Assembly: GCA_965153355.1 (NCBI GenBank)
Contig: OZ231126.1
Coordinates: 47,554,001 to 47,618,000, forward strand
Origin: Flaccisagitta enflata
Lineage: Eukaryota
Direction of reading: 5' to 3'
Length of the DNA stretch: 64,000 bases
The position numbers and the translations under genes were made by a program. This document shows, piece after piece, positions 11,418-47,110 of the stretch. The notes beneath the pieces were generated by a model. The model was not told the DNA's origin and ran no database searches. It was given only the letters and a program-made list of their open reading frames with translations. Each line of letters opens with the position of its first letter. Positions within the stretch are counted from its first letter, which is position 1.

Positions 11418-11585
11418 GTAAATTTTTTAAAGAGAACAAAGAAGGCTGGATTTTTTTTCTCAAAAAAGTGCATCTTTAACGTATATACAGTTACATTCTG
11501 CACAAGCGGATCTCTTGGGACTGAAAATTACATCTCTTGTGACTTGTGAGTTGTGACAATCTTTGTCAATCTTCCTAAACCTCAG

Positions 11586-11725
11586 ATCCGACTCCGATGA
11601 ACACGATGAAGGTCGAAACTTCAGGTCCCCGAAGAAAGTCAGCAGTTGCTGACATGGGAAATAGATGGACCTTAGTGCCCAACGGTAATGCCATTGCGAG
11701 TCAAGAATCGATCATCGGATTTGCA

Positions 11726-11823
<98 letters not shown>

Positions 11824-11890
11824 GAGACTTGGACTGCGGCCGCAACAACCGAAACAGCCCATGTTTGTAGCAAAAGGCATGTGCAGCCCA

Positions 11891-11937
<47 letters not shown>

Positions 11938-11945
11938 GCAACAGC

Positions 11946-11986
<41 letters not shown>

Positions 11987-13357
11987 CCGATGTTCGTATC
12001 AAAAGGTATCAGTGCCGTGCGACCAACTCAATCGACGAACCGTGGTTTGTTCTGCAATAACCTGTCCATCGTTACGAACAACAATGAAGGTGTCAACAAC
12101 AAGGTCGAGTTTATCCACGATCGAGTTGGATTCAACGTTTCGACAAAAGAAAGAACCAAGCCCGCTTCCAAGTGGAAAGTGACTGTTCAAAATAGTCAAT
12201 CTTCACGCGTTAACGCGACTGTTGGAAGCGGCGGTATTAATGGTGGAATCGATATTAACATGGACATTTCTCCCGCGGCGCAAGCGCACGTGACTGCATC
12301 CCCAAAAAGATCGAAAATGCTGCAACAGCAACCCAGCACGCAGCATTTGAGCGCTCGAAACACGCAGATTATTAAAACACCTTCGGAAGATGCCGACTAT
12401 TACAGTCAACAGAATTATCACGCTCGACATTTTTATCAACAAGAACAGCTTCATCATCAGCATCATCAAAGCAATCAAGTCGGCTCTCATCAAAGTCGTG
12501 ACCATTATCAAGAACAGCAGCGTACAAATTTTCAGAATCCGTCCAATCAAACAGTTTTCACGCGGACAGGACAACAACCACAACTACAGCGGGGATTTCA
12601 GCAACAACAGCAGCTGCAGCACCCTGCGTCGGTATCGCCGGAGCATAAAACTCTAGACGATTGCGACAGCGACGGTGAAGCTGCGTTGAATAACTTTTTC
12701 AAAGTCGCCGCTACGACCAACGTGGAGATGCTGTCGCCGCCGCTGACACCGGACGCTGACGGATTTCTCGAAGACGAATGCGGTGTCAGCAACATTAACA
12801 ACAATGATGATGGATTTTCAGACTCACTCAGAGAGAGATTCTCTCAGCAATGCTTGCAGCAACTTTCCAATTCAAAAGAGGATGACGATGAGGAGGATGA
12901 AGCGCAACGGACGCTACAAGGAAATTCAATGGTGTTGAAGCTACATAATCCGGCACAGCGATCGAAAAGCGATCATTCAAGATTAAAACAATCGGACGAT
13001 GAAAACAAAACCATTGGACGGTCGGAAGAAATAAACACAAATTTACTCACTCCCAAAACAAATGACTGTCCACCACCACAGCATCATCACGCCGACCTAA
13101 CGGAACTGATGCAGCATCCCGTGAATGATGATGATGATGTTGATGATGCTGTCGTCGACGACGATGATGACGAGCTGCTTCGTCGTGAAGTCGTCAACGC
13201 GCCGTTGCTGCAGCATCCCTACGGTTTGCCGCCGACAAACGATCGTGAATGTCCGATGTGCTCGGCTGTGTTCCCCGACGGAAGCATCTCTCAGGACGAG
13301 TTTGAATCACACGTTCAATCCCATTTCGAAGCTCAAGATAATTTCGAAATCGTTTGA
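11586..13357 (+). CDS. Exon 3 (last) of the same gene: Q-rich disordered region plus C-terminal UBZ1-type C2H2 zinc finger
   Basis: Acceptor ctcag|AT in phase. Long ORF ending ECPMCSAVFPDGSISQDEFESHVQSHFEAQDNFEIV*. The three exons total 2727 nt = 908 aa + stop. Confidence 0.85.
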
Positions 13358-26940: not shown

Positions 26941-35130
<8,190 letters not shown>

Positions 35131-35246
35131 CTATCATCCGTCGAGAATGAAAAGAGTACCGGTGAAAGATGTAGCGCCGTTATCAGGTAATCTCAGCCAA
35201 CACACGCCCAGTAAGAATCCGCTTGTCAGCGTTCTCAGGGATCATG

Positions 35247-35285
<39 letters not shown>

Positions 35286-36457
35286 CCAAAGATTCAAGAT
35301 TCAAAAACATATATTGCAGATCACAGCCAATTTAAGGCGCGCGAGGATCATAGGCAACACTTGGGTGTACAACATAGTTCACTATTCTAGTCTATATGTT
35401 CGCGGTTTGTTTTCATTTATCTTTTCATCGTAGTTTTTCAATTTATTAATCAGTTAATTTTTATCAGTTAACTAGTCAACCCCTAATCATAGCTGTTTTG
35501 AATGATCACATAGCGCCAAACATTGTATCTTAACCCTCCCTTCGTTTTTCTTTCCTGTTCTGTTCTTCGTTTCTTCTCTTTCTTCCCCCCCAGACTCCGT
35601 TCCCTTCTTCCCCCTTCTTTTGGCCATGGTTTTTCAATACAACCAGGGGCTGTTGCTAGTGCTATTCTATTCTAGAGCCCCCTATCGTTTAGTTTAGTTT
35701 AGTGGTCAATAAAAGTAGCACAAGTGAACAAACAACATTCTATTTTCTACTGAGGTAACAGGTTGTTCCTATAGTATCACATTTGCGAGGTAGGCTAGTT
35801 TTGAGCAAGTCATGGACGGTTCACATTTAGTTGTCAAGTTTAGGACCATTTACTACGAATCATTTTAGTTATAACCGACTGGAGCTAGTTAATCGCGTAA
35901 GTAAGTAAGTAATAAGCTGGATATTTTTCAAGCAGATTACTAGAGAGGAAGCTGGAAGGAGAGAAGAGAGAGGTGGGGGAGGGGGAAAAAGAGGGGGGGA
36001 GGGAGGAGAAAGGAGAAAGAGGGGAATGGGGTTAGCGGTGGAAGTGGGATGAGCAGTAGAGTAATAAACATAAATTAATTTGCGTTTCCTTCAGTTAATT
36101 GCTATGTACAGTAATCAAAGTAATCTAGGTGCCAAGAGTAGCATAAAAATTAGTATCACAGCCACTTAGACCGGTTTTTAGTGCAAGGTTCTAGTGTTCT
36201 AGTGTATTACTGTTGCGATGTATTATTGATTTGTTTCTTGATTGTCTTTCGTAGAACTCGACGTTTCCTTTTTTGCTTGAATTATCATTACTATTCATTA
36301 TCTCTTAATCTATGGCCTAACCCCGCCAGGGGAGAAGGGGGGAGGCGGGGGGGGATGGGGGGAAGGGGGGGGTGGGGGGTGCGACGGTTCGGCGGCTCGA
36401 GCTTTAGCCGCCTGTCGAAGTCCGAGTGCACTGTCGCCATTTTGACTGTGTCTCCGG

Positions 36458-37510
36458 TCACTCCTCCTTTCCCTCCCTTTCCTCCTCCCCCTTCCTCCTC
36501 TCCTCCCTCCGCGCGCGGTCCTGTTTCACTAGCATCATTGCTGGTACCATAGTGTTGAGCTCAGAGGCGTTTAGCAGGTCTTGACCTACTCTGTTAGTGA
36601 CGCAGTTCATTGCTGCTAGGATCGGGCCACTGTTGATCGCTGTTAGATTCGCCACTGGTGTGTTGTTGAGTGCATAAGCGTCGTGGCCGTATCTTTTTAC
36701 CGCCTCCGCATACGCGCTTAGGAATCCGAGGACGGAGTAGTTGTGGGCGTCGATGACGTTTCGACTTGTGCGCTGGACGTGGTCGAGATGCATCATAGCA
36801 GAGGCCGCTTGACTGAAGGCCCCCGAGGTGATGTCCGCCACTGACATCTGCGTGTGCTGGGTCGAGTACCCCATTACTGAGTAAGTTATTGATTTGTTTT
36901 GTTCAGTCACCCTTAGGTCTGAAGTTAGTTTGTCTGTTAATTGGGGTCCGTCGGCTATACAGCCCGAGTCAGAGCCCTCATTCATTTTTAGTTTTTCTAG
37001 TTTGTTAATTTCTATTGTTAGTAGATTCATTAATCTCAAGTCAGTGTCATTAGGTTCCTCTCTAAAACCGTCTGATGTCTCCTTATAGTATTGGTTGAGT
37101 TGGTCTAGTTTAGATTGCAGTTTCCCCTTAGAGACTTCTGGGAACAGTCTGAAGGGATTGTCAAAGTACGGCAGAGAGGAGGGGTCCGAAGAGGCTCCTC
37201 CCTGTTCTCGTTTGGCGCCGGCGTCGGCGCCGTCGGTTTTAGTGGGCGTTTGCTGTTGTCCGGGTGGCGCCGGCTTTGATGGCGGCGCTGATGCTGGTGT
37301 TGGTGTTGCTGCGGTTTTGTCGAGAGCCGCTGCAGACGCCTTTTCTGTCGCCGACGTTGCTGCTGCGATTGGTGAGACGTCGACGGTCGGGATTTTAGTG
37401 GGCGTTGGAGCGGCTGCAGACGGGGTGGAGTGGAACACCTCGTCAGCTGATGCATCTCCATCGTCAGCCTGTTTTGGGTTGCGATTTTTGACAAGGAGTT
37501 ATACATTCAT
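36458..37510 (-). CDS. Putative extra ORF (ORF3) of the LINE, unknown function
   Basis: 326-codon ORF from GTG 37438; the frame is open back to 37498, and an in-frame ATG at 37510 is cut off by one TAA at codon 4. Same strand and ORF1-like Ala/Thr/Pro-rich composition; non-repetitive C-terminal half. Confidence 0.55.
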
Positions 37511-37920
37511 TCCGAGTTTGTTAAATTAATCAATCAACTGTTAGTGGCAATACATTTCATTTATGCAGGAGCGGTGCACCAGTCATTCAGTCATTCAATC
37601 ATCAATGTTATTAGCCATCATTATTATTGCTATAATTGAAGTATTAAGACCATGATTATAAGAACAGATAGGAGATGAAGAAGAACAACAGCAACAACAT
37701 TGGGCTTTGTGTCTATATAGTACCGTGAGGCAGCACAGAAGTGCCCGACATCTGCTACTCTTTACTGTTTTGTGCAGTCTGGTACTCTTTATCTTTTCAA
37801 GAGCTACTCTCTCGCTGTCTCTTTTCTCTGTTTTACTGGTCACATTGAAGGATCCAGAGATCCAGTCAGTCATCTGGGATAGAACGATATCTGTTATTGT
37901 TACTGTCATTTGTTAAATTG

Positions 37921-40866
37921 TTAGTTGTGATTGTGTGGAACCATGAAGACACATTCTGGGCATGAGCTTGGTATGGTAAGTGTTTTGAGATGGTCCAGGT
38001 GGATGTCTAGTGGGGACTTATTAGTCTTACAGGCCCGCTTAGTTATTGCTCTTTTTCTGTACTTATGCATTAGAGATTGAGGACATGTCTTGTGTATCCT
38101 TGTTAGGGTGTTGTGTGCTCTTTTGATAATGGTTTCTTGTATGCAGGTTGCTCCAGTGCTGCTCATTGTGGACTCGTTTGATGCCTTTCTTGGTATTCCT
38201 GCAAAAGCCTTTAAGGCTCTAAATTGGATGTCTCTTATGTGTTTCCAGTGATGATCTGCCATTGGGAGGTAGGCACTTGATCCATAATCAAAGAGTGAAG
38301 TAACAAGAGCATTAAAGAGCTCATGTATGAGTTTTGGCTTGACTTGATTGCCAGATTCAGCTAACCTTTTAATTTGCCATATTCTTGGCCAGGCTTTCCC
38401 ACAGAGGGACTTTATGTATTCACCCCATCTTAGCTGCTGATCTAATCGGATACCCAGAAATGTAGCACTTTTTGTGACTGGTATTTTTTCTCCAAGGAGT
38501 TTCACCTCTGGGTGTGCATCAAATTTTCCTGGTGATCTAGTGAATGCAACTATTTGAGATTTAGAGGGTGCAGGAAGTAGTCTCCACTTCCTGCACCAAC
38601 CTTCTATGGCATCAAGAATTTCTTGCAGTCTGGTTGAGGATTCTACTAAAGTGGGTCTGGAGACCCATTCGCCTGTATCATCTGCGTAGCTAGACGACGA
38701 ATCTTCAGTGTGTTTGGTGTAGATAAGTGGTTCCTCTTGGTCTACTGGCTCTGTCTTGTATGATGCTACTGTTTCATTTTTTTGTTGATCCAGTTGCTTC
38801 TGGTTGAGATCTCCACCTGGGAGATCATAAGTAAAAAAAGTGTATATGCCAGGAGAATTCACGCCCCCTTGTGGGGCTCCGGCATCTATGTGTCTCATTT
38901 CTGTGTTTAGTTTTCCATTGCTTATGAATATCTGTCTTTCTTCAAGGAAGCTGCCCAATATTCTTATAAGCCATTGTGGGAGTTTGCTTCTTAGCATCTT
39001 AAATTTGGCCCCATTGGTCCAAAGTGCGTCGAACGCTTTACTAATATCTAGGAAGCAACCTATGGTGATCTTTCTCGATTTCAGGCCGTGGTGAATATCT
39101 TCCACCAGCCTATGAATTGCCTCTTGGCAGGATCTTCCAGCAAGGAATCCTGCTTGCTTTGTTCTGTGGAGGCCTAGCTTTTGTCTCCAGTTTTGGAACC
39201 TTCCATTGATATATCTCTCAAAGATCTTTCCAATTACATTTGTTAGTGAAATTGGCCTGTAACTGCCTGATTGAGTTTTATCCTTATTGGGTTTGATAAT
39301 CATTATGATTTTGGCTATTTTCCATGATGCTGGAAAGTAGCCTTTCTTGACACAGGCACGGAAGATTATGTTCATCCATTTGATCATATTCTCTCTAAAG
39401 TGTTTGACATCTTGATGGTTTATACCGTCCGGCCCAGCTGAGCCATTGTTTTTAATTTTCTTAATCAATTCTACCGTATTTTCCTGATTGATATTCACTT
39501 CCATTTCTATTTCTTTTTCTTCTTCTTCAGTTAGTGACTCGTATAGCTTTGGCCATTCCTGGCTTACAGCCTTTTCAACTTCATCCTTCCATTCTTCATC
39601 CATGTAGTCGGCCGTTGCTGTACTGCAGGTCTTGACCATCCTGTCAAGGTGAACTTCAAGGTTTTCCTGCTCGCTGGCTGCCCAGCTTCCATCTTCTTTT
39701 TTCAAGGCTGTGGTTGCCTCGTTATAGATTCTTTCTCTATTCATTATTACATTCATTTTGCGCCATCTCTTTGCTGGGTCTTTTTCTTTAAGCATCTTGT
39801 TTATTTGTTGGAGTTTCTTGTTCCCGTCTAGTTTGGCCAGGCGTCTTTTTATTTCTCTGTTTAGGAAATTTATTCTGGCCTTAGTTTCATTCTGTGTTTC
39901 TATGTCTTTTTTCCTCTTTCTCACCAATTTTCTTCTTTCTGTTATGAGTGAGTTTGTCTCTTTGTCTATTGGTATATCTTTAGAGGTTCTTACTTTTAAT
40001 TGTATTGTATGCATTGCTTTGGCATCTTGGACAGTTCTCGTCATTTCTTCTATGGAGCTATCTATCTCTTCTCTGGTTTTTGGCTCTGTCAGCTTGGTTG
40101 GGTCAATTAGTTGCTCTAGTGTTTCACCAAAGCCTTCATAGTCAATTGTGGTGATTGTTGTCTTTGTGTTTTCTTTTCTTTCTTTCTGAATGCTGATTTC
40201 CAATTGGAGTGGTAGATGGTCGCTGCCAAAGTGGTCAGCTACAATGAGTTCTTCTGCCATTTCTAGTCCTTTTCTGTTTGTTAGACAGAGGTCAAGAATA
40301 TTATCTCTTCCTTCCCCTGCACAGAGGTATGTTTTTTCTTCATTGTGAATGGGAATGAGGTTGTATTTCGAGATCAAGTCAACTAGTTCCTTGCCAGCCG
40401 GTGAGTCTAAGTTGCCCCCTAGGGCAGTGTGTTGACTATTGAAATCCCCCATAAGGAATAGTGGGAGATTTTCTTCTTGTGCTATGTGGGTGATTTGTGC
40501 AATCTGACTTTCTGAAATTACGTTACCAGGTCTGTTGTAAATGGTTGAAACAAGCAGAGGAATGATTCCTGTCTGAACTTTTGCGATTAGGCACTCAGGT
40601 GTGATGGCTTTGTATTCTTGTGCAAAAGTGTCTTTGTCCATTACTAATGCCGAGTCTTTTACCAGTATTGTGGACATGTCTTTGAATTTCATATCCCTCA
40701 TGTCTGTTGTTCTTATGTCGTTAAAGAGATATAGCGACTTTTTCCCTTCCTTTTTATTTCTGTCAATGAGACTATTGAGTAGATGTAACCGTGTAGGTTT
40801 CCCATTTGTATTACCTTGAAAGAGGTAGAGACGGTCACCTCCTTGTTTTTGCTCCGCCCTTGCCAT
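37921..40866 (-). CDS. LINE ORF2, AP-endonuclease plus reverse transcriptase (981 aa)
   Basis: APE motifs FQGNTNG, IYNRPG, GDFNSQH, LDLCLT, GSDHLP. RT motifs YRPISLT, QAGF, FLDISKAFD, GAPQGG, YADD, FLGI. Overlaps the ORF1 end by 32 nt. Confidence 0.95.
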   Translation of the reverse strand: MARAEQKQGGDRLYLFQGNTNGKPTRLHLLNSLIDRNKKEGKKSLYLFNDIRTTDMRDMKFKDMSTILVKDSALVMDKDTFAQEYKAITPECLIAKVQTGIIPLLVSTIYNRPGNVISESQIAQITHIAQEENLPLFLMGDFNSQHTALGGNLDSPAGKELVDLISKYNLIPIHNEEKTYLCAGEGRDNILDLCLTNRKGLEMAEELIVADHFGSDHLPLQLEISIQKERKENTKTTITTIDYEGFGETLEQLIDPTKLTEPKTREEIDSSIEEMTRTVQDAKAMHTIQLKVRTSKDIPIDKETNSLITERRKLVRKRKKDIETQNETKARINFLNREIKRRLAKLDGNKKLQQINKMLKEKDPAKRWRKMNVIMNRERIYNEATTALKKEDGSWAASEQENLEVHLDRMVKTCSTATADYMDEEWKDEVEKAVSQEWPKLYESLTEEEEKEIEMEVNINQENTVELIKKIKNNGSAGPDGINHQDVKHFRENMIKWMNIIFRACVKKGYFPASWKIAKIIMIIKPNKDKTQSGSYRPISLTNVIGKIFERYINGRFQNWRQKLGLHRTKQAGFLAGRSCQEAIHRLVEDIHHGLKSRKITIGCFLDISKAFDALWTNGAKFKMLRSKLPQWLIRILGSFLEERQIFISNGKLNTEMRHIDAGAPQGGVNSPGIYTFFTYDLPGGDLNQKQLDQQKNETVASYKTEPVDQEEPLIYTKHTEDSSSSYADDTGEWVSRPTLVESSTRLQEILDAIEGWCRKWRLLPAPSKSQIVAFTRSPGKFDAHPEVKLLGEKIPVTKSATFLGIRLDQQLRWGEYIKSLCGKAWPRIWQIKRLAESGNQVKPKLIHELFNALVTSLFDYGSSAYLPMADHHWKHIRDIQFRALKAFAGIPRKASNESTMSSTGATCIQETIIKRAHNTLTRIHKTCPQSLMHKYRKRAITKRACKTNKSPLDIHLDHLKTLTIPSSCPECVFMVPHNHN

Positions 40867-43800
40867 TGCTGGTGGAGGTCGTCAGGGCTTTTGCTTCCAG
40901 GTTGCCCTTGTTCATGGAGACGCTCGGGATGCCCGTCGTCGTCTGTCTTCTTGGGATGCTGCTTGGTTTTGTCGCTGAGGAGGGAGGAAGAGGAGGCGGC
41001 AGCTCCCTCGACAGTACTGCTGTTGCTGGTTGCCAGATTATCGTTTGGCTTAGTGGCGGTGTTGGTTGCGTTGTTGACGTTGCAGTTGCTGTTGCTGTTG
41101 TTGACGCTGCTGCTGATGTCATTGACGCTGTTGTTAGTGGCGTTAGTGTTGTTAGTGTTGAGCTCGCTGTTAGTGGCGTAGTTGTTGGGGCGCTGGCGAT
41201 TGCCCCTCCTCCTCCTAGTGTTGTTTGGTGCTGTTTTGGGTTCACTAGTGTTGACGCCGTTAGAGCTGCAGCCGGCGTCGTCGTTGACCATGGCATCGGC
41301 CCAGAGAGTTGGCTGTGGTGGTTGATCTGGGAGGACGAGGCGTAGTGTGGGAAGATCGTTGGTTGACTGAGGCAGGTCCGGTGGAGGAATTGCCCGCCGT
41401 GAGTCTGCTGTTGTTGTGTTGGCGCCGTTTCCATTTGCAGGCTTCCCGTCTGGGTTTGAAGACTTGCTGGATGGAGTTGGCCTGTTTGAATGTGATCAAT
41501 GAGCCTTTTAAGACCATTTTCATTGAAAGTCACTAGACCATTAAACTTTAACTGGGCATGAATGTCAGCTATTAGTGGGGAGTTATTCATGGCTGTGTGT
41601 AATATGCCATTATTACTGTTGTTGTTATAACCTGTGTTTGCCATTTCTCCTAGTCTTGTCTTTGTTGTCTTTTCTGTCACTAGTGGAGGAGGAGGATGAG
41701 GATGAGCGTCTGGTTCCTTTCGTTGGCCTGAATGGTTATTCGTCATTTGTTTATTTTCAGTGCCATTAGAAGAACTGTTAGGAGTTACCGGTCTCTTGTC
41801 TTGAAGCATTGGGTCAAGAGACAGTTTTATGGCCTTCAGTCTACTTTCATACCTTTGAAGAGCATCCTTGTTTTTCACTGATGTTGGAACACTAGTTGAA
41901 GCTGATGTGGGCGCCGGTGGTTGGTGGTCGTCGCCCACCTCCATGGTTTCGGCCGCCTTTGCCCCATCAGGTTCTGCGGCGTCTTGCTGGTCTTCTTCAT
42001 GGCTAGTGAGGCCTGCAATGTGTGAGCAAAGTTGTTCTACAACTCCAGTTAAGTCATAGATTATCTTTGTCAGTTCTCTGTGGTTTAGTTCATCATTTTT
42101 GGGTTTGGTGATTACATCTGATTCATTGGTTAGGTCAATGACATTTGCCACTGCACCCTCTACGGCTCTGGTGTCTGTTGTTTGTTGGCGTGATGTTGGG
42201 TCTACAGGTGTGGGCAAGTATTGTGATTTTGCCCCTCTTACTGGTGGGAATTCTTCCTGACTGGGTACAAATGGCATTGGCCACATGTCTGTTGGTACTG
42301 TACCGTTCATCATTGGTGGATATGGTACTGAAGTATTTGTCATTGATGGGAATGGTACATACTGAGGTGGCTGGCCAAATGGCGGTGGGCCTACTGGTGC
42401 CAATACTTTCCCCCAGATGCTAGGTGGGGGGTTGCTAAATTGGTAGTCTGTCTCTCTAGTGTGATGTTGGTCATCATCAATATAGTCAGAATAGTTGCCA
42501 TTGGGTGCTTTTTTCATACCTTGTTTGTATTCTCGCTGGACCGGACAGTCCTTGTGAGTGGAGAGGGCCCCTTTTTTTCCACAGTTGACGCATTGCCAAT
42601 CTTTCTCTGGACATTTTGTCGGTTTGCCGTCTGGGCCATAGTGAAGTGGTTTGCCGCAGCGGAAGCAGATTTGCTTTTTGGGAGTGGGGCAGTCTCTTCT
42701 TTCGTGGCCCCAGTTCTGGCATCCGAAGCACTGACCCGTGCTTTGTCGATAGGCCTCAACTTGAAACCTTCCGACACCGCCCGGGCCAGTGATGAATTCT
42801 GCCTGCAGGACTTCGTCGGCTTGCTGCTTTGACTTGAAGGTGAGTTTGGCAGATTTCTTTGGGGCGTTTTCGTCCTTGGTCATTATGACCACTTCGGTCA
42901 CATCATATCCATAGTTGAGGAGCTCTGCCTTGAGTTCTTCTACTTTGACGGACCGGGGTATCTTGTGCATGACGATGGCTTTAGTAGCATTCATCCTGTG
43001 TGACATAGAAGGAATAATTAGTGGAGTAAGATGAGACCATGTTTCTTTTTTTAGGGCTCTACTGTAACTTTCCATATCATCTGCAAACAGGATTACTTCA
43101 CCTTTGAAGTTTATAATTATACTATGGACCTTTATGTTAATCTTATTTTTGTCAATCAAGTCCATGATCTTTTTTGAGACTGTCCAGTCACTGTCCTTCC
43201 AGCCTGATGGCCAGTTAGTATTGAGCATTACTGCAAACTGTTTTTTATCAGCTGGCATGTTTCTGCTATTTGCTTTGTTTTTATTTCTTTGACTTGTTGG
43301 TGTTAACATTCTTGCACTGCTCCGGTCAGAATCTGACTCGCTGGCTGCATTACTGCTAGACCCATGGTTAGACCAAGAGTTTTGTCCATAGGATGGACTG
43401 AGGTGATGCGGGTGGGTCTGTTGTAATACTCGTTGTTGGTCCTGGTTTCTTTTCTGGGTATTATGATCGTTGTCTTTAGGCCCGTGGACTTTGACCGTAG
43501 GTATAGTGCCAGTTGAGGAAGTTACTGTTGTAGTTGCCGTGTTTATTCCAGTTGTATTGGTGGTGGTAGAGGAGCCAGTTCTAGATATAGCCATAGAGAC
43601 ATTGGTGGAAGCGAGGCTATTCCCCGCTATCTGTGACACTGGTGCACCGCTTACCTGCTGTATTGCCAGGGCAGCCGGAGGTGACGTAGTCGTGGGTACC
43701 GTAGCCGAAGTTGGCGTAGCTTGCGTCTTTTCTGATGTTGGGGTAGTCTGCGACTCGGCTACTGTAGTTGTTGGCGGAGTTTGGCTGCCGTCTGACTTCG

Positions 43801-44302
43801 AAGTTGGTGGCTGCGTTGTCACGGACTTTAGTGGTTGTTGGTGTGCCGCCGCCCCTTTTGGCGGCGGCGTGGGCGACGATGACGCTGCCTTCGCTACCTC
43901 GCTGGTAGTTCTAGTGGAGCTAGTGTCACTTAGTGTGGCGGACGTGACCGAGTCTTCGTCCCTTCGTGGGCTTTTATTTCTTTGCGCTTTGTCCGGCGAA
44001 GAATCTTCTAGTTCTTTACGCTTTCTGAGAAAGTTACTGATACTTTGCTGGGAATGATCCACAGCTTTATGCTTCCTCTTAACTTTCTTTTTATAAGCTA
44101 TTTCAGCGTCGGATTTTTCAGTGTCTGCGTCAATATCTGAAAGAATGGGGTTAGAATCATTAGATGACATGTTAGAGACATTCGAGTGATTAGACTCTGT
44201 AGCGTTGTCTAGTATATCGCGAGATTCTTTTGCTTGGGCAGGGTCCTCCGGGTCGGCTCCTGCCCTTTCATTCTTTCCTTTTTTATCCTGTCGCGAGGAC
44301 AT
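40835..44302 (-). CDS. LINE ORF1, gag-like nucleic-acid-binding protein (1155 aa)
   Basis: PRE_C2HC-like segment KAIVMHKIPRSVKVEELKAELLNYGYDV followed by knuckles CFGCQNWGHERRDC, CFRCGKPLH..C, CVNCGKKGALSTHKDCP. Confidence 0.9.
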   Translation of the reverse strand: MSSRQDKKGKNERAGADPEDPAQAKESRDILDNATESNHSNVSNMSSNDSNPILSDIDADTEKSDAEIAYKKKVKRKHKAVDHSQQSISNFLRKRKELEDSSPDKAQRNKSPRRDEDSVTSATLSDTSSTRTTSEVAKAASSSPTPPPKGAAAHQQPLKSVTTQPPTSKSDGSQTPPTTTVAESQTTPTSEKTQATPTSATVPTTTSPPAALAIQQVSGAPVSQIAGNSLASTNVSMAISRTGSSTTTNTTGINTATTTVTSSTGTIPTVKVHGPKDNDHNTQKRNQDQQRVLQQTHPHHLSPSYGQNSWSNHGSSSNAASESDSDRSSARMLTPTSQRNKNKANSRNMPADKKQFAVMLNTNWPSGWKDSDWTVSKKIMDLIDKNKINIKVHSIIINFKGEVILFADDMESYSRALKKETWSHLTPLIIPSMSHRMNATKAIVMHKIPRSVKVEELKAELLNYGYDVTEVVIMTKDENAPKKSAKLTFKSKQQADEVLQAEFITGPGGVGRFQVEAYRQSTGQCFGCQNWGHERRDCPTPKKQICFRCGKPLHYGPDGKPTKCPEKDWQCVNCGKKGALSTHKDCPVQREYKQGMKKAPNGNYSDYIDDDQHHTRETDYQFSNPPPSIWGKVLAPVGPPPFGQPPQYVPFPSMTNTSVPYPPMMNGTVPTDMWPMPFVPSQEEFPPVRGAKSQYLPTPVDPTSRQQTTDTRAVEGAVANVIDLTNESDVITKPKNDELNHRELTKIIYDLTGVVEQLCSHIAGLTSHEEDQQDAAEPDGAKAAETMEVGDDHQPPAPTSASTSVPTSVKNKDALQRYESRLKAIKLSLDPMLQDKRPVTPNSSSNGTENKQMTNNHSGQRKEPDAHPHPPPPLVTEKTTKTRLGEMANTGYNNNSNNGILHTAMNNSPLIADIHAQLKFNGLVTFNENGLKRLIDHIQTGQLHPASLQTQTGSLQMETAPTQQQQTHGGQFLHRTCLSQPTIFPHYASSSQINHHSQLSGPMPWSTTTPAAALTASTLVNPKQHQTTLGGGGAIASAPTTTPLTASSTLTTLTPLTTASMTSAAASTTATATATSTTQPTPPLSQTIIWQPATAVLSRELPPPLPPSSATKPSSIPRRQTTTGIPSVSMNKGNLEAKALTTSTSNGKGGAKTRR

Positions 44303-44704
44303 TATTGTTATGGGTGCTTAACAGCTGGGAGTGTTGATTTGCTTCTATACTTAGCCAGGACCTGATTGAGCATAGTGCATTTTTGCATGTGGCTTTTGGA
44401 AGCGGTTTTATTTAACCGGCTGGACTAATGTCCGTTCCAGTGTGGTGTATATAGTGAGTGGTGTAATACCACACTACACACACACTGGCGCTCTCTCTCT
44501 ATATAGTATATTGCAGTATATACTAGGTATTGACTCGGTATAGCAAGCGTAGTAGTATAGGACTTAAGCGTTAAAACGCCTAAGTGTGAGATTTGGCCGG
44601 ACTTAAGCGTTTTTAGTCGGATCGAGAGAACTCGTTCAGAAACAGAGTCTCGATTTTTTTCCAAAAAATAATTCGGAGGAGCTTGCGACTGCTCGCGACC
44701 GAGT

Positions 44705-44743
<39 letters not shown>

Positions 44744-47110
44744 AAAAGGCGAGGAAGATTGTTTTTGAATTTGAGTTGGCGCCGTCGAGGAAAGAAGCAG
44801 AAGATGAAGACGGAAGAAGCGCGAAGAGAGAAGCTGAAGAGATGTGGAGCAAAAGCGTATGGATGATGGGAGTTTCGTTGGTCGCCATCGTCGATTTCTT
44901 CGAGATGTTTTTTTTAAGCATGAAAAGAGAAAGAAAAAGTCGTCGAATTTTCCCCCTCCGTCCGCCGGCTACGTCTTGGTGCGGAGTCCCGGATGTTTTT
45001 TTCCCATCTTTAGTCCTAGCGGGTTGTTTCGCCTATGCATCATAGTCTTGGAGCGGGTTTTGGGGTTGCTTCCCGGACATAATCCCGACGGTAGCTCCTT
45101 TGCTCAGCCGAAGCTGGCCCCACGACTATGTCTGGTCTCGACGCCCAGAAGAAGAAAAAAAGCGACGCTATGTTTTAAATTGAAGAGGAGTCGAAGACGG
45201 CGATGGAGAGAAGACGACGTTGATGGGTTCGAACACGTCGTATAGATGGAGATGACGAACGCGAGCCATCCCGTTGGATGACTTCCCGGCCGATGCACCA
45301 GGTGAAGAAACAGGAAAAGAGAGGAGCATCGGAGAAAGAGTCAGTAGTAGAGAGCGTAGGCGGCCCGTCGTCAACAAACCACAAAAACCACACGAAACGT
45401 GGTATGGAGCGAGATATATATAGGAGGAAGGGTCTGTCTGTCTGACTATCACGCCGAGCCAAACAGGAGAAGAAGAAGTCCGCAAAAAGATGAGACAAGA
45501 GCATGATAGAGAGAGAGAAAAAGGGCACAACTCCAACTGCATAACAAGACTAGGGCTACGGTATATAAAGGCAATAATGATGACGAAGAATAACAACAAC
45601 TGACCACACGCTACAACAACAACCATGACGACAACGACGACAACTAATCCCCCGGTCAGTCACTGAGTGAGGAGAGAAGAGAGAGAGCCGAGAGAAGAGA
45701 GAGAGCCGAGAGAAGAGAGAGAGAGCCGAGAGAAGAGAGAGAGCGCCGGTCAATCCTCAGTCGCGACTAGATGACCACTGTCCTACGCGCGCCTGTCAGT
45801 CCGGTCTCAACACATCACTATCAAACGAACCGCAAAGCACTCTCTGAATCCGAATCTGCAGTCAAAAATACCAGAAAACATCACCACAAAGAATTATGAT
45901 GAAAAATGTACTAAATTTACACCATTTTTGCATATATTTCAAAAATCGCTCCAAAAGTGATTTAGTTTCCTTTAGATCTATATTGTACACACTACACTGA
46001 CCCAAAAACTATCAAAGTGAGAGACGATCATTCTACCTCAACTCATTCCGTGTTTTGGCTGGTAGTGGGAGTGGCATGAATGAGGAACAGCGCAATGTGT
46101 GGACACTTTCCATGCCCCTATGTGCCTCTGCTCATCAAGCTATACAGGAACTGACAAACACCACCAGAAAGAGTGGAGAGCAGCATACAGAGATGGGGCT
46201 ATCCAGGATAAGTCGTGATTGGAAGGATACACGCCTTGTGGCCGAATTCTTACAAGAAAGAAACCCATTTTAGTATGGAGATGTGTTCTGCAATATTGCC
46301 AATGGTGTTCAAGCACACTCATCAGTCAATGTCGATAATGCTGCAGCAATTGGTGACCACATACTAGAAAAGATGGTTGGAGAAAAAGTGAGTGATTTTT
46401 CTTTTAAGAAGAAAGATCAGGCTGTAACCATGGGTTCCAAAAATGATGTCAAAGTAGATGGAGATATTGTGCAATTTGAGCCACATATCTTGTTTCAAAA
46501 GCTTGCTGTGGCAGCTGAAAGGAGTGACAGTATCAATCCTGAAACTATTTTCAAGCATGAATTAATCACCATTCCAAAGGCTCTTGCAAAAACACCTGAA
46601 TTGCTGCATGAAGCCCAAAAATCCACTCTTGCTGATGCAATATGGTCAACTGTTAATCAAAATGCAGCCTCTGTCCCAGATGGTGTCAGGTATGTACTAG
46701 ATGGAGGTGCTCTCCTACACAGGATTCCTTGGTCACGTGGCTCTACTTATGAAGGCATTTTAGAAACCTACAGCAATTATGTAGGCACCAACTATGGAGA
46801 AGCTGTGGTGGTTTTTGATGGTTACAAAGAATTTACAACCAAAGATATGACTCACAAGCGCAGTCTGAAGGGGAAAAAGGGAGTGAGTGTTACATTCAGT
46901 CTGGACATGAGTCTTAGTGTCACAAAAGAGGCATTCCTTAGTGACCCAAAAAACAAACAGCAATTCATCGATTTTCTTGGCACAAAGCTCACAAATCAAG
47001 GTAGCCATGTTTTCCATGACCAAGCAGATGCGGACCTGTTCATTGTTCAAAAGGCAATTGAGTCTGCAGAATCCATGGATACAGTATTTATTGGAGATGA
47101 TACAGACTTA

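Follow-up and report, generated by a model that had tools for sequence, protein, structure and literature searches.

Long interspersed nuclear elements (LINEs) are taken to need only two proteins, ORF1p and ORF2p, which are the products of open reading frames (ORFs) 1 and 2. A locus in the genome of Flaccisagitta enflata raises the question of whether an element of this kind can carry a third gene downstream of the other two. The locus lies within a stretch of 64,000 nucleotides (nt) of contig OZ231126.1 (assembly GCA_965153355.1, positions 47,554,001 to 47,618,000), which was analyzed as a whole and is referred to below as the window. A first-pass annotation, made from the letters alone, had pointed to a third long ORF between the stop codon of ORF2 and the tail of a LINE and had proposed that it encodes an accessory protein of an undescribed multi-ORF lineage. 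We confirmed a same-strand frame after ORF2 at 36458-37498, which runs for 346 codons from stop to stop (ORF3). The explanation that we favor, with moderate confidence, is that ORF3 is a genuine accessory-protein component of an undescribed LINE lineage with three ORFs.

The sequence at 35284-44706 on the minus strand is a single insertion of a non-LTR (long terminal repeat) retrotransposon of the APE (apurinic/apyrimidinic endonuclease) type, about 9.4 kb in length. It encodes an endonuclease and a reverse transcriptase, has no LTRs, ends in a simple-repeat tail and belongs to a multi-copy family. Two arrays, (TC)17 and (TC)16, flank the element, one at each end and oriented alike. Because these arrays enclose everything, ORF1, ORF2, ORF3 and the 1.15-kb 3' untranslated region (UTR) belong to one insertion unit, with ORF3 located between ORF2 and the tail. 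The TTGAATC tail announced by the first-pass annotation is indeed present downstream of ORF2, and Tandem Repeats Finder reports within it a 7-base unit repeated 2.3 times (35289-35304). Self-BLAST of 35201-44500 against the window returned the self match only, revealing no terminal repeats, and neither blastn nor tblastn found a second copy of the element in the window. The only AATAAA (35447) is located in the 3' UTR. No Rfam family reached its gathering score over 33000-46000, and a scan for bacterial-type promoters and terminators, whose models are not applicable to a eukaryote, showed no enrichment.

The paired (TC)16-17 arrays could be a long target-site duplication inside a microsatellite or else a sign of (TC)n targeting. 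The R1 clade includes LINEs with microsatellite specificity. On the plus strand of the window there are 5 (GA)n arrays of at least 12 units in total.

In order to determine whether ORF3 belongs to a protein family, we searched large protein collections and found 24 other proteins related to it, which fall into 9 clusters, are 99-351 amino acids (aa) long and are in no case fused to a reverse transcriptase. The word-indexed search returned four clusters at 88, 79, 84 and 56% identity (E 1.7e-193 to 6e-73) with 20 member proteins. The exhaustive profile search of 1.84 billion representatives returned six proteins of 99-291 aa at E<=1e-3 (P0004, P0021-P0025), and the weakest homologue match across the searches had an E of 1.7e-08. 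The conserved core carries the motifs PYFDNPFRL, DSGCIADG, GYSTQH, VIDAHNY and INSGPILAAMN, the last four of which are kept in members at 27-33% identity, and it has conserved D, H, S, T, R and N residues. Identity to the nearest cluster is 94-96% in the core (residues 107-330) versus 76-82% in the N-terminal region (residues 10-106).

The composition of the predicted protein agrees with the first-pass description. Residues 1-106 are rich in alanine (22%), proline (14%) and threonine (11%), and the last 16 residues form a charged tail that is 50% glutamate and 25% arginine. The helical middle and the globular-looking C-terminal half correspond, in two AlphaFold models of low confidence, to a helical hairpin followed by a mixed alpha/beta region. 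Both models are poor (pLDDT, the predicted local distance difference test score, of 49.8 and 50.7), and both agree on a disordered N-terminus, a two-helix antiparallel hairpin, three strands and then helices. ORF3 has no Pfam match: when 10 members were scanned to E<=10, only single-member matches to 10 unrelated families appeared (E 0.013-8). The best match to sequence profiles of PDB proteins had an E of 0.35, and Foldseek found nothing in BFVD at E<=0.001. A VIA-align comparison with 48,161 chains matched only the hairpin at residues 118-181, with Z<=7.8, a level common for such hairpins. Neither Pfam, nor sequences in the PDB, nor the fold comparisons account for the protein.

Differences between genomic copies of the element were classified, and the counts below refer to the 40 best-supported of 467 differences and to 12 of 21 insertions and deletions (indels). 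Among those listed, seven of the eight differences in ORF3 are synonymous, and the eighth changes leucine to serine, serine being the residue found in the homologues. Synonymous changes also make up 9 of the 12 differences listed in ORF2 and all four of those listed in ORF1. The single indel listed in ORF3 is 6 nt long, keeps the frame and corresponds to a two-residue gap in the homologues, while four of the five indels listed in the 3' UTR (35584, two variants at 35609, 35618 and 35980) are 1-2 nt long and one is 3 nt long. These patterns, although from a small sample, argue that ORF3 is real coding sequence under purifying selection among copies. Because a synonymous bias among LINE copies reflects the history of their masters, it would be master copies with a working ORF3 that have propagated.

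We then examined how often the different parts of the element recur in two DNA runs of the same organism (X1 and X2) and in a marine metagenome run (X3). For X1 and X2, depth means the word depth summed over all contigs with a likeness of 90% or more; it does not give a copy number and serves only for the comparison of bins. The element is multi-copy, with 1143 (X1) and 969 (X2) contig pieces at 90-100% likeness, and its depth is several-fold over that of the flanks. In X1/X2, respectively, the two flank bins have depths of 168/144 and 244/81, as against 665-994/137-1615 in the 3' UTR bins, 1404-2365/1110-3788 in the ORF3 bins, 1593/2964 in the spacer bin between ORF3 and ORF2, 739-3912/1057-6865 in the ORF2 bins and 524-1678/407-1359 in the ORF1 bins. 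Depth is thus raised in both runs in every bin from 35324 to 44341, the post-ORF2 region included, and one X2 contig (349 nt, depth 827) covers 44250-44597, which takes the raised stretch to about 44600. In X3 the depths of individual pieces are 4.76 and 4.25 for ORF3, 3.05, 4.23 and 3.9 for ORF2, and 4.86, 3.54 and 3.82 for ORF1. ORF3 is repeated in the DNA of the organism at about the contig depth of ORF1 and ORF2.

The proposal of an accessory protein is supported in part by a conserved unannotated family, by the position of ORF3 inside the (TC)n flanks, by its repetition together with the rest of the element and by the synonymous bias, but several observations weigh against it. One is that the window copy lacks an in-frame start: there is no in-frame ATG before codon 157, so that the third long ORF of the first-pass annotation stands as an open and coding frame but not as one with a usable ATG in this copy. 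The selection count is small, since it rests on 40 of 467 differences. The linkage of ORF3 to ORF2 in other copies is only indirect: no piece that spans both in another copy was found among the X1-X3 contigs, which are mostly about 200 nt long, and scans of metagenome, viral and genome contigs for related loci gave 58, 58 and 45 pattern matches, respectively, with 0 relatives. Close ORF3 proteins number 20 in the protein collection, with contigs of 0.65-2.97 kb behind them, versus a single C-terminal fragment of ORF2 (P0026, 80% identical, on a contig of 799 nt); this imbalance would be compatible with separate transcription of ORF3, with assembly breaks in the variable spacer or with ORF3 copies without ORF2. 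Among the sequencing runs listed as containing the stretch, none is recorded as RNA. Finally, in a poly(A) RNA run of the same study, of which about 6% was read, none of 72 matching reads lay fully on the stretch. These partial matches sit on low-complexity tracts (a G-run at 36347-36379 and GTT repeats at 41070-41103), and a result from about 6% of the run says little either way on the expression of ORF3.

The start of the frame was compared with that of the homologues. The nearest upstream in-frame ATG (37510) is followed by two more codons and then by TAA (37499-37501). The ATG at 37506 (MYNSL...) corresponds to the start of the homologues but sits in the neighboring frame, and ORF calling restricted to ATG starts splits the region into two frames of different phase, 37105-37506 and 36458-37030. 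In the nearest cluster, 9 of 13 members have a length of 350-351 aa and share the start MESLYN[SF]L[LF]KNQNPKQADD. In the window the YNSL codons are in the frame of the ATG at 37506 and KNRNPKQADD is in the ORF3 frame, which amounts to a shift of one base near a run of five A (A5). A marine-metagenome contig (X3 record 18, 37393-37645, 9 mismatches, 0 gaps) has the same phase as the window, and for this reason neither a private mutation nor an assembly slip is the obvious cause of the shift. Later starts (proteins of 238 or 325 aa) are seen in the other 4 of the 13 members and in P0003, and the first third of the protein is evidently dispensable or frequently interrupted. Either the N-terminus of ORF3 is defective in the window copy or its sub-lineage relies on natural -1 slippage at the A5 run. 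A predicted RNA fold after the A5 run was not convincing as a stimulator of frameshifting (z -2.24, equalled by 8 of 200 shuffles).

An altered genetic code that would read through the TAA at 37499-37501 was also considered and rejected, because ORF2 itself ends in TAA and the homologues start differently. The frame at 37105-37506 (minus strand, 133 codons), which opens at the ATG matching that of the homologues, overlaps the N-terminal third of ORF3 and has a product rich in R, Q, H and P; it is probably kept open by stop-poor composition.

The alternative that survives best, although we consider it unlikely, is that ORF3 is a host gene or a gene of another element that was caught by 3' transduction or template switching and has no role in retrotransposition, its conservation being due to a function of its own or to recent capture. 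LINEs can carry downstream sequence along with them. PMC4700185 mentions 3' transduction. The ratio of 20 ORF3 proteins to one ORF2 fragment in the protein collection would suit such a passenger, as would the lack of similarity of ORF3 to ORF1 and ORF2 and the fact that its start is out of phase in a copy whose ORF1 and ORF2 are intact. However, the seven synonymous differences among the eight listed and the in-frame indel are unexpected for a gene with no role in propagation. The homologues are open down to 27-56% identity, which indicates that the family is old. Furthermore, all of them come from metagenome-type records and none from an annotated genome, and the nearest cluster consists of 13 slightly different members, which resembles a multi-copy family rather than one host gene.

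It is still less probable that the locus consists of side-by-side repeats, that is, of a two-ORF LINE that stops shortly past ORF2 and an unrelated repeat with ORF3 adjacent to or nested in it. In favor of this reading, copies vary in the segment 37605-37718, the likeness of X2 contigs to the window is lost at 37719, and an X3 contig ceases to match at 37645. The imbalance between ORF3 and ORF2 proteins could be read in the same way. Yet an X1 contig (depth 281) bridges the spacer by joining 37604 to 37719, skipping 114 nt, and the loose letters of the X2 contigs at 37719 (a 30-letter consensus) can be read as this spacer in a diverged form. There is no tail and no target duplication after ORF2; the sole tail-like repeat is the one at 35284-35306, and ORF1, ORF2 and ORF3 all lie between the two (TC)n flanks. 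The raised depth in every bin from 35324 to 44341 and the equal depth of ORF1, ORF2 and ORF3 pieces in X3 also disagree with two independent repeats. That ORF3 is open merely by chance, within a 3' UTR that is long and non-coding, is extremely improbable: the lack of an in-frame ATG would agree with it, and the overlapping frame at 37105-37506 shows that stop-poor composition opens frames here, but chance accounts neither for homologues at E 1.7e-193 to 1.7e-08 nor for a conserved core next to a variable N-terminal region with seven of eight listed differences synonymous.

Several further features of the post-ORF2 region were recorded. Contigs of other copies also show a joint within the 3' UTR, between 35331 and 35548. 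A frame of 104 codons that begins with ATG (about 37595-37912, minus strand) starts 9 nt past the stop of ORF2 and shares the phase of ORF3, and the variable 114-nt segment, a multiple of three in length, lies inside it; this frame is probably not a gene, because its product is Cys-rich and of low complexity. An X2 contig of low depth (11.9) joins 37931 to 35594 with one letter between them, which we read as a joint that goes back along the element; candidate explanations are a rearranged or tandem post-ORF2 module and an assembly chimera.

If ORF3 is, as we favor, part of a three-ORF LINE lineage, one LINE transcript would carry three sense genes: ORF1, encoding a putative zinc-knuckle RNA-binding protein, ORF2 and ORF3. 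The ORF3 product would be an orphan-family protein of about 350 aa with a variable, disordered N-terminal third, a core of about 225 residues and a charged tail of E, R and K, and it may be needed by the lineage, or be profitable to it, during self-copying. Its most likely role, which is a guess, would be that of a partner of the ribonucleoprotein of the element, with the hairpin serving for oligomerization or docking. Translation of ORF3 could proceed from a shorter transcript initiated within the spacer, which has a TATA-like motif at 37719, or could depend on re-initiation along the full-length RNA. This motif is the only one of its kind on the minus strand in 35200-38000 and lies about 210 nt upstream of the ORF3 start region; it is a single motif and not promoter evidence. 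A bolder version, which we put forward only tentatively, would make ORF3p obligatory in an undescribed lineage of marine-animal LINEs and ORF3 the first sense gene downstream of ORF2 in a non-LTR retrotransposon, expressed through a sub-genomic transcript from the spacer or, in the sub-lineage of the window copy, through a -1 slip at A5 that joins the MYNSL start to the conserved frame.

Other identities of the ORF3 product were considered and rejected. A TraG_N/TraW-like identity (PF07916, PF28212) had been suggested by a protein-atlas feature score of 0.94 to bacterial clusters, 14-24% of whose members have these families, and it was reproduced neither with P0021 nor by Pfam. An SGNH/GDSL esterase was discarded because none of the 10 members scanned has a Lipase_GDSL match even at E<=10. 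ORF3 is also no copy of either ORF1 or ORF2, to which its best blastp match has an E of 0.42.

We conducted domain analysis of the two canonical proteins in order to place the element among known LINEs. ORF1 encodes a long protein of low complexity, rich in S, T, P, N and Q, with CCHC zinc knuckles at residues ~519-558 that match retroviral nucleocapsid knuckles (E 8e-4); a match to RRM_1 is weak (E 0.078, below the cut-off). The start of ORF2 overlaps the end of ORF1 by 32 nt, and its stop is a TAA at 37921-37923. Pfam identifies in ORF2 the domains Exo_endo_phos_2 (residues 105-219, E 5e-16) and RVT_1 (residues 529-807, E 1.5e-24), and among solved proteins it matches human L1 ORF2p (E 3e-14) and R2 (E 3e-10). 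No RNase_H family was matched in ORF2 by Pfam at E<=0.1. Its six closest relatives (P0027-P0032) are also devoid of PF00075, which many more distant matches carry, and one named relative is 'transposon BS' of Tribolium (32% identity over 58%). The first-pass annotation had assigned the element to the Jockey/I group. In the I clade, RNase H is expected downstream of the reverse transcriptase; an ORF2 with APE and reverse transcriptase and no RNase H match argues against that part of the assignment. By clade name, its kin are presumably the Jockey/CR1/R1 group. The coordinates of all parts of the element are collected in the table below.

Table. Parts of the ORF3-bearing LINE and its flanking arrays, listed from the 5' to the 3' end of the element; positions are those of the window.
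Feature	Positions	Strand	Basis or remark
Upstream (TC)16 array	44707-44739	-	Adjoins the 5' end of the element; candidate target-site duplication or microsatellite target
5' UTR	44303-44706	-	Sequence; depth drops in bin 44676-45000
ORF1, 1155 aa	40835-44302	-	ORF call, profile matches
ORF2, 981 aa, endonuclease and reverse transcriptase	37921-40866	-	Pfam, solved-protein matches
ORF2-ORF3 spacer	37499-37920	-	Many short upstream ORFs
ORF3 start region	37485-37510	-	Phase change near A5 run 37485-37489
ORF3, stop-to-stop, 346 codons, stop TGA 36458-36460	36458-37498	-	Same strand as ORF2
ORF3 conserved core, residues 107-335	36494-37180	-	Homologue alignments
3' UTR, 1.15 kb	35307-36457	-	Purine- and C-rich low-complexity tracts
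3' tail, short tandem repeats TTGAATC TTGAATC TTTGGAATC	~35284-35306	-	No poly(A)
Downstream (TC)17 array	35250-35283	-	Directly past the 3' tail; partner of the 44707-44739 array

Elsewhere in the window, a stop-to-stop frame of 454 codons (33766-35130, minus strand) follows immediately on the downstream side of the element. Its sequence abounds in P, S, G and E/R repeats, crosses a 10-N assembly gap (34975-34984) and has a sub-threshold match to PRP38_assoc (E 0.004); a host exon and a low-complexity artefact are both conceivable. Another frame, of 592 codons (11579-13357, plus strand), ends in a Zn-C2H2_12 autophagy-receptor zinc finger (E 6.4e-10), a domain of animal autophagy receptors, which agrees with a metazoan host. 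Dinucleotide arrays of at least 12 units are common across the 64 kb (5 GA, 6 TC, 5 CA and 2 TG), several of them longer than 100 bp.

The element resembles other APE-type non-LTR retrotransposons in its ORF1 with CCHC knuckles, its ORF2 with APE and reverse transcriptase but no RNase H, the slight overlap between these two ORFs and the short tandem-repeat tail that takes the place of poly(A). It differs from them in having a third sense gene of about 1 kb and 1.15 kb of UTR after ORF2, in the unusual length of its ORF1 (1155 aa) and in the distance of its ORF2, whose closest full-length relative among 5.8 billion proteins is only 36% identical. The first-pass annotation had called a downstream ORF3 rare in LINEs. 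In searches of the main text of open-access papers, we came across no conserved sense-strand gene downstream of ORF2 in a LINE.

Accessory coding capacity in other positions or other elements has been described. Primate LINE-1 elements carry ORF0, a primate-specific antisense frame of 71 aa within the 5' UTR (Denli et al. 2015, cited by PMC5203782 and PMC4700185). Like ORF3, ORF0 is a LINE coding frame beyond ORF1 and ORF2; unlike it, ORF3 is in the sense orientation, is located downstream of ORF2 and encodes about 350 aa with a conserved globular core. An SGNH esterase is found in the ORF1 position, upstream of pol, in CR1, L2 and RTEX LINEs, according to PMC5408684. It is likewise a non-canonical accessory module in a LINE, whereas ORF3 lies downstream of ORF2 and matches neither Lipase_GDSL nor any other Pfam family. 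ORF3s are reported in DIRS elements as well. The same paper (PMC5408684) describes captured ORF3s in LTR retrotransposons and Penelope-like Athena elements of bdelloid rotifers, which are env-like or encode a GDSL esterase or a DEDDy exonuclease. With these the gene described here shares its position as an accessory gene downstream of pol that is not necessarily env, but its host element is a LINE and its product matches no known family.

The ORF3 family would constitute a new protein family, for which ribonucleoprotein assembly, nuclear entry, target choice and defence evasion are candidate jobs; with regard to target choice, the window copy is inserted in a (TC)n microsatellite. The element also raises the question of how the third cistron of a LINE RNA would be translated. 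If the lineage does keep a third conserved and unrelated protein under selection, then non-LTR elements too can recruit accessory genes downstream of pol, as LTR and Penelope-like elements do.

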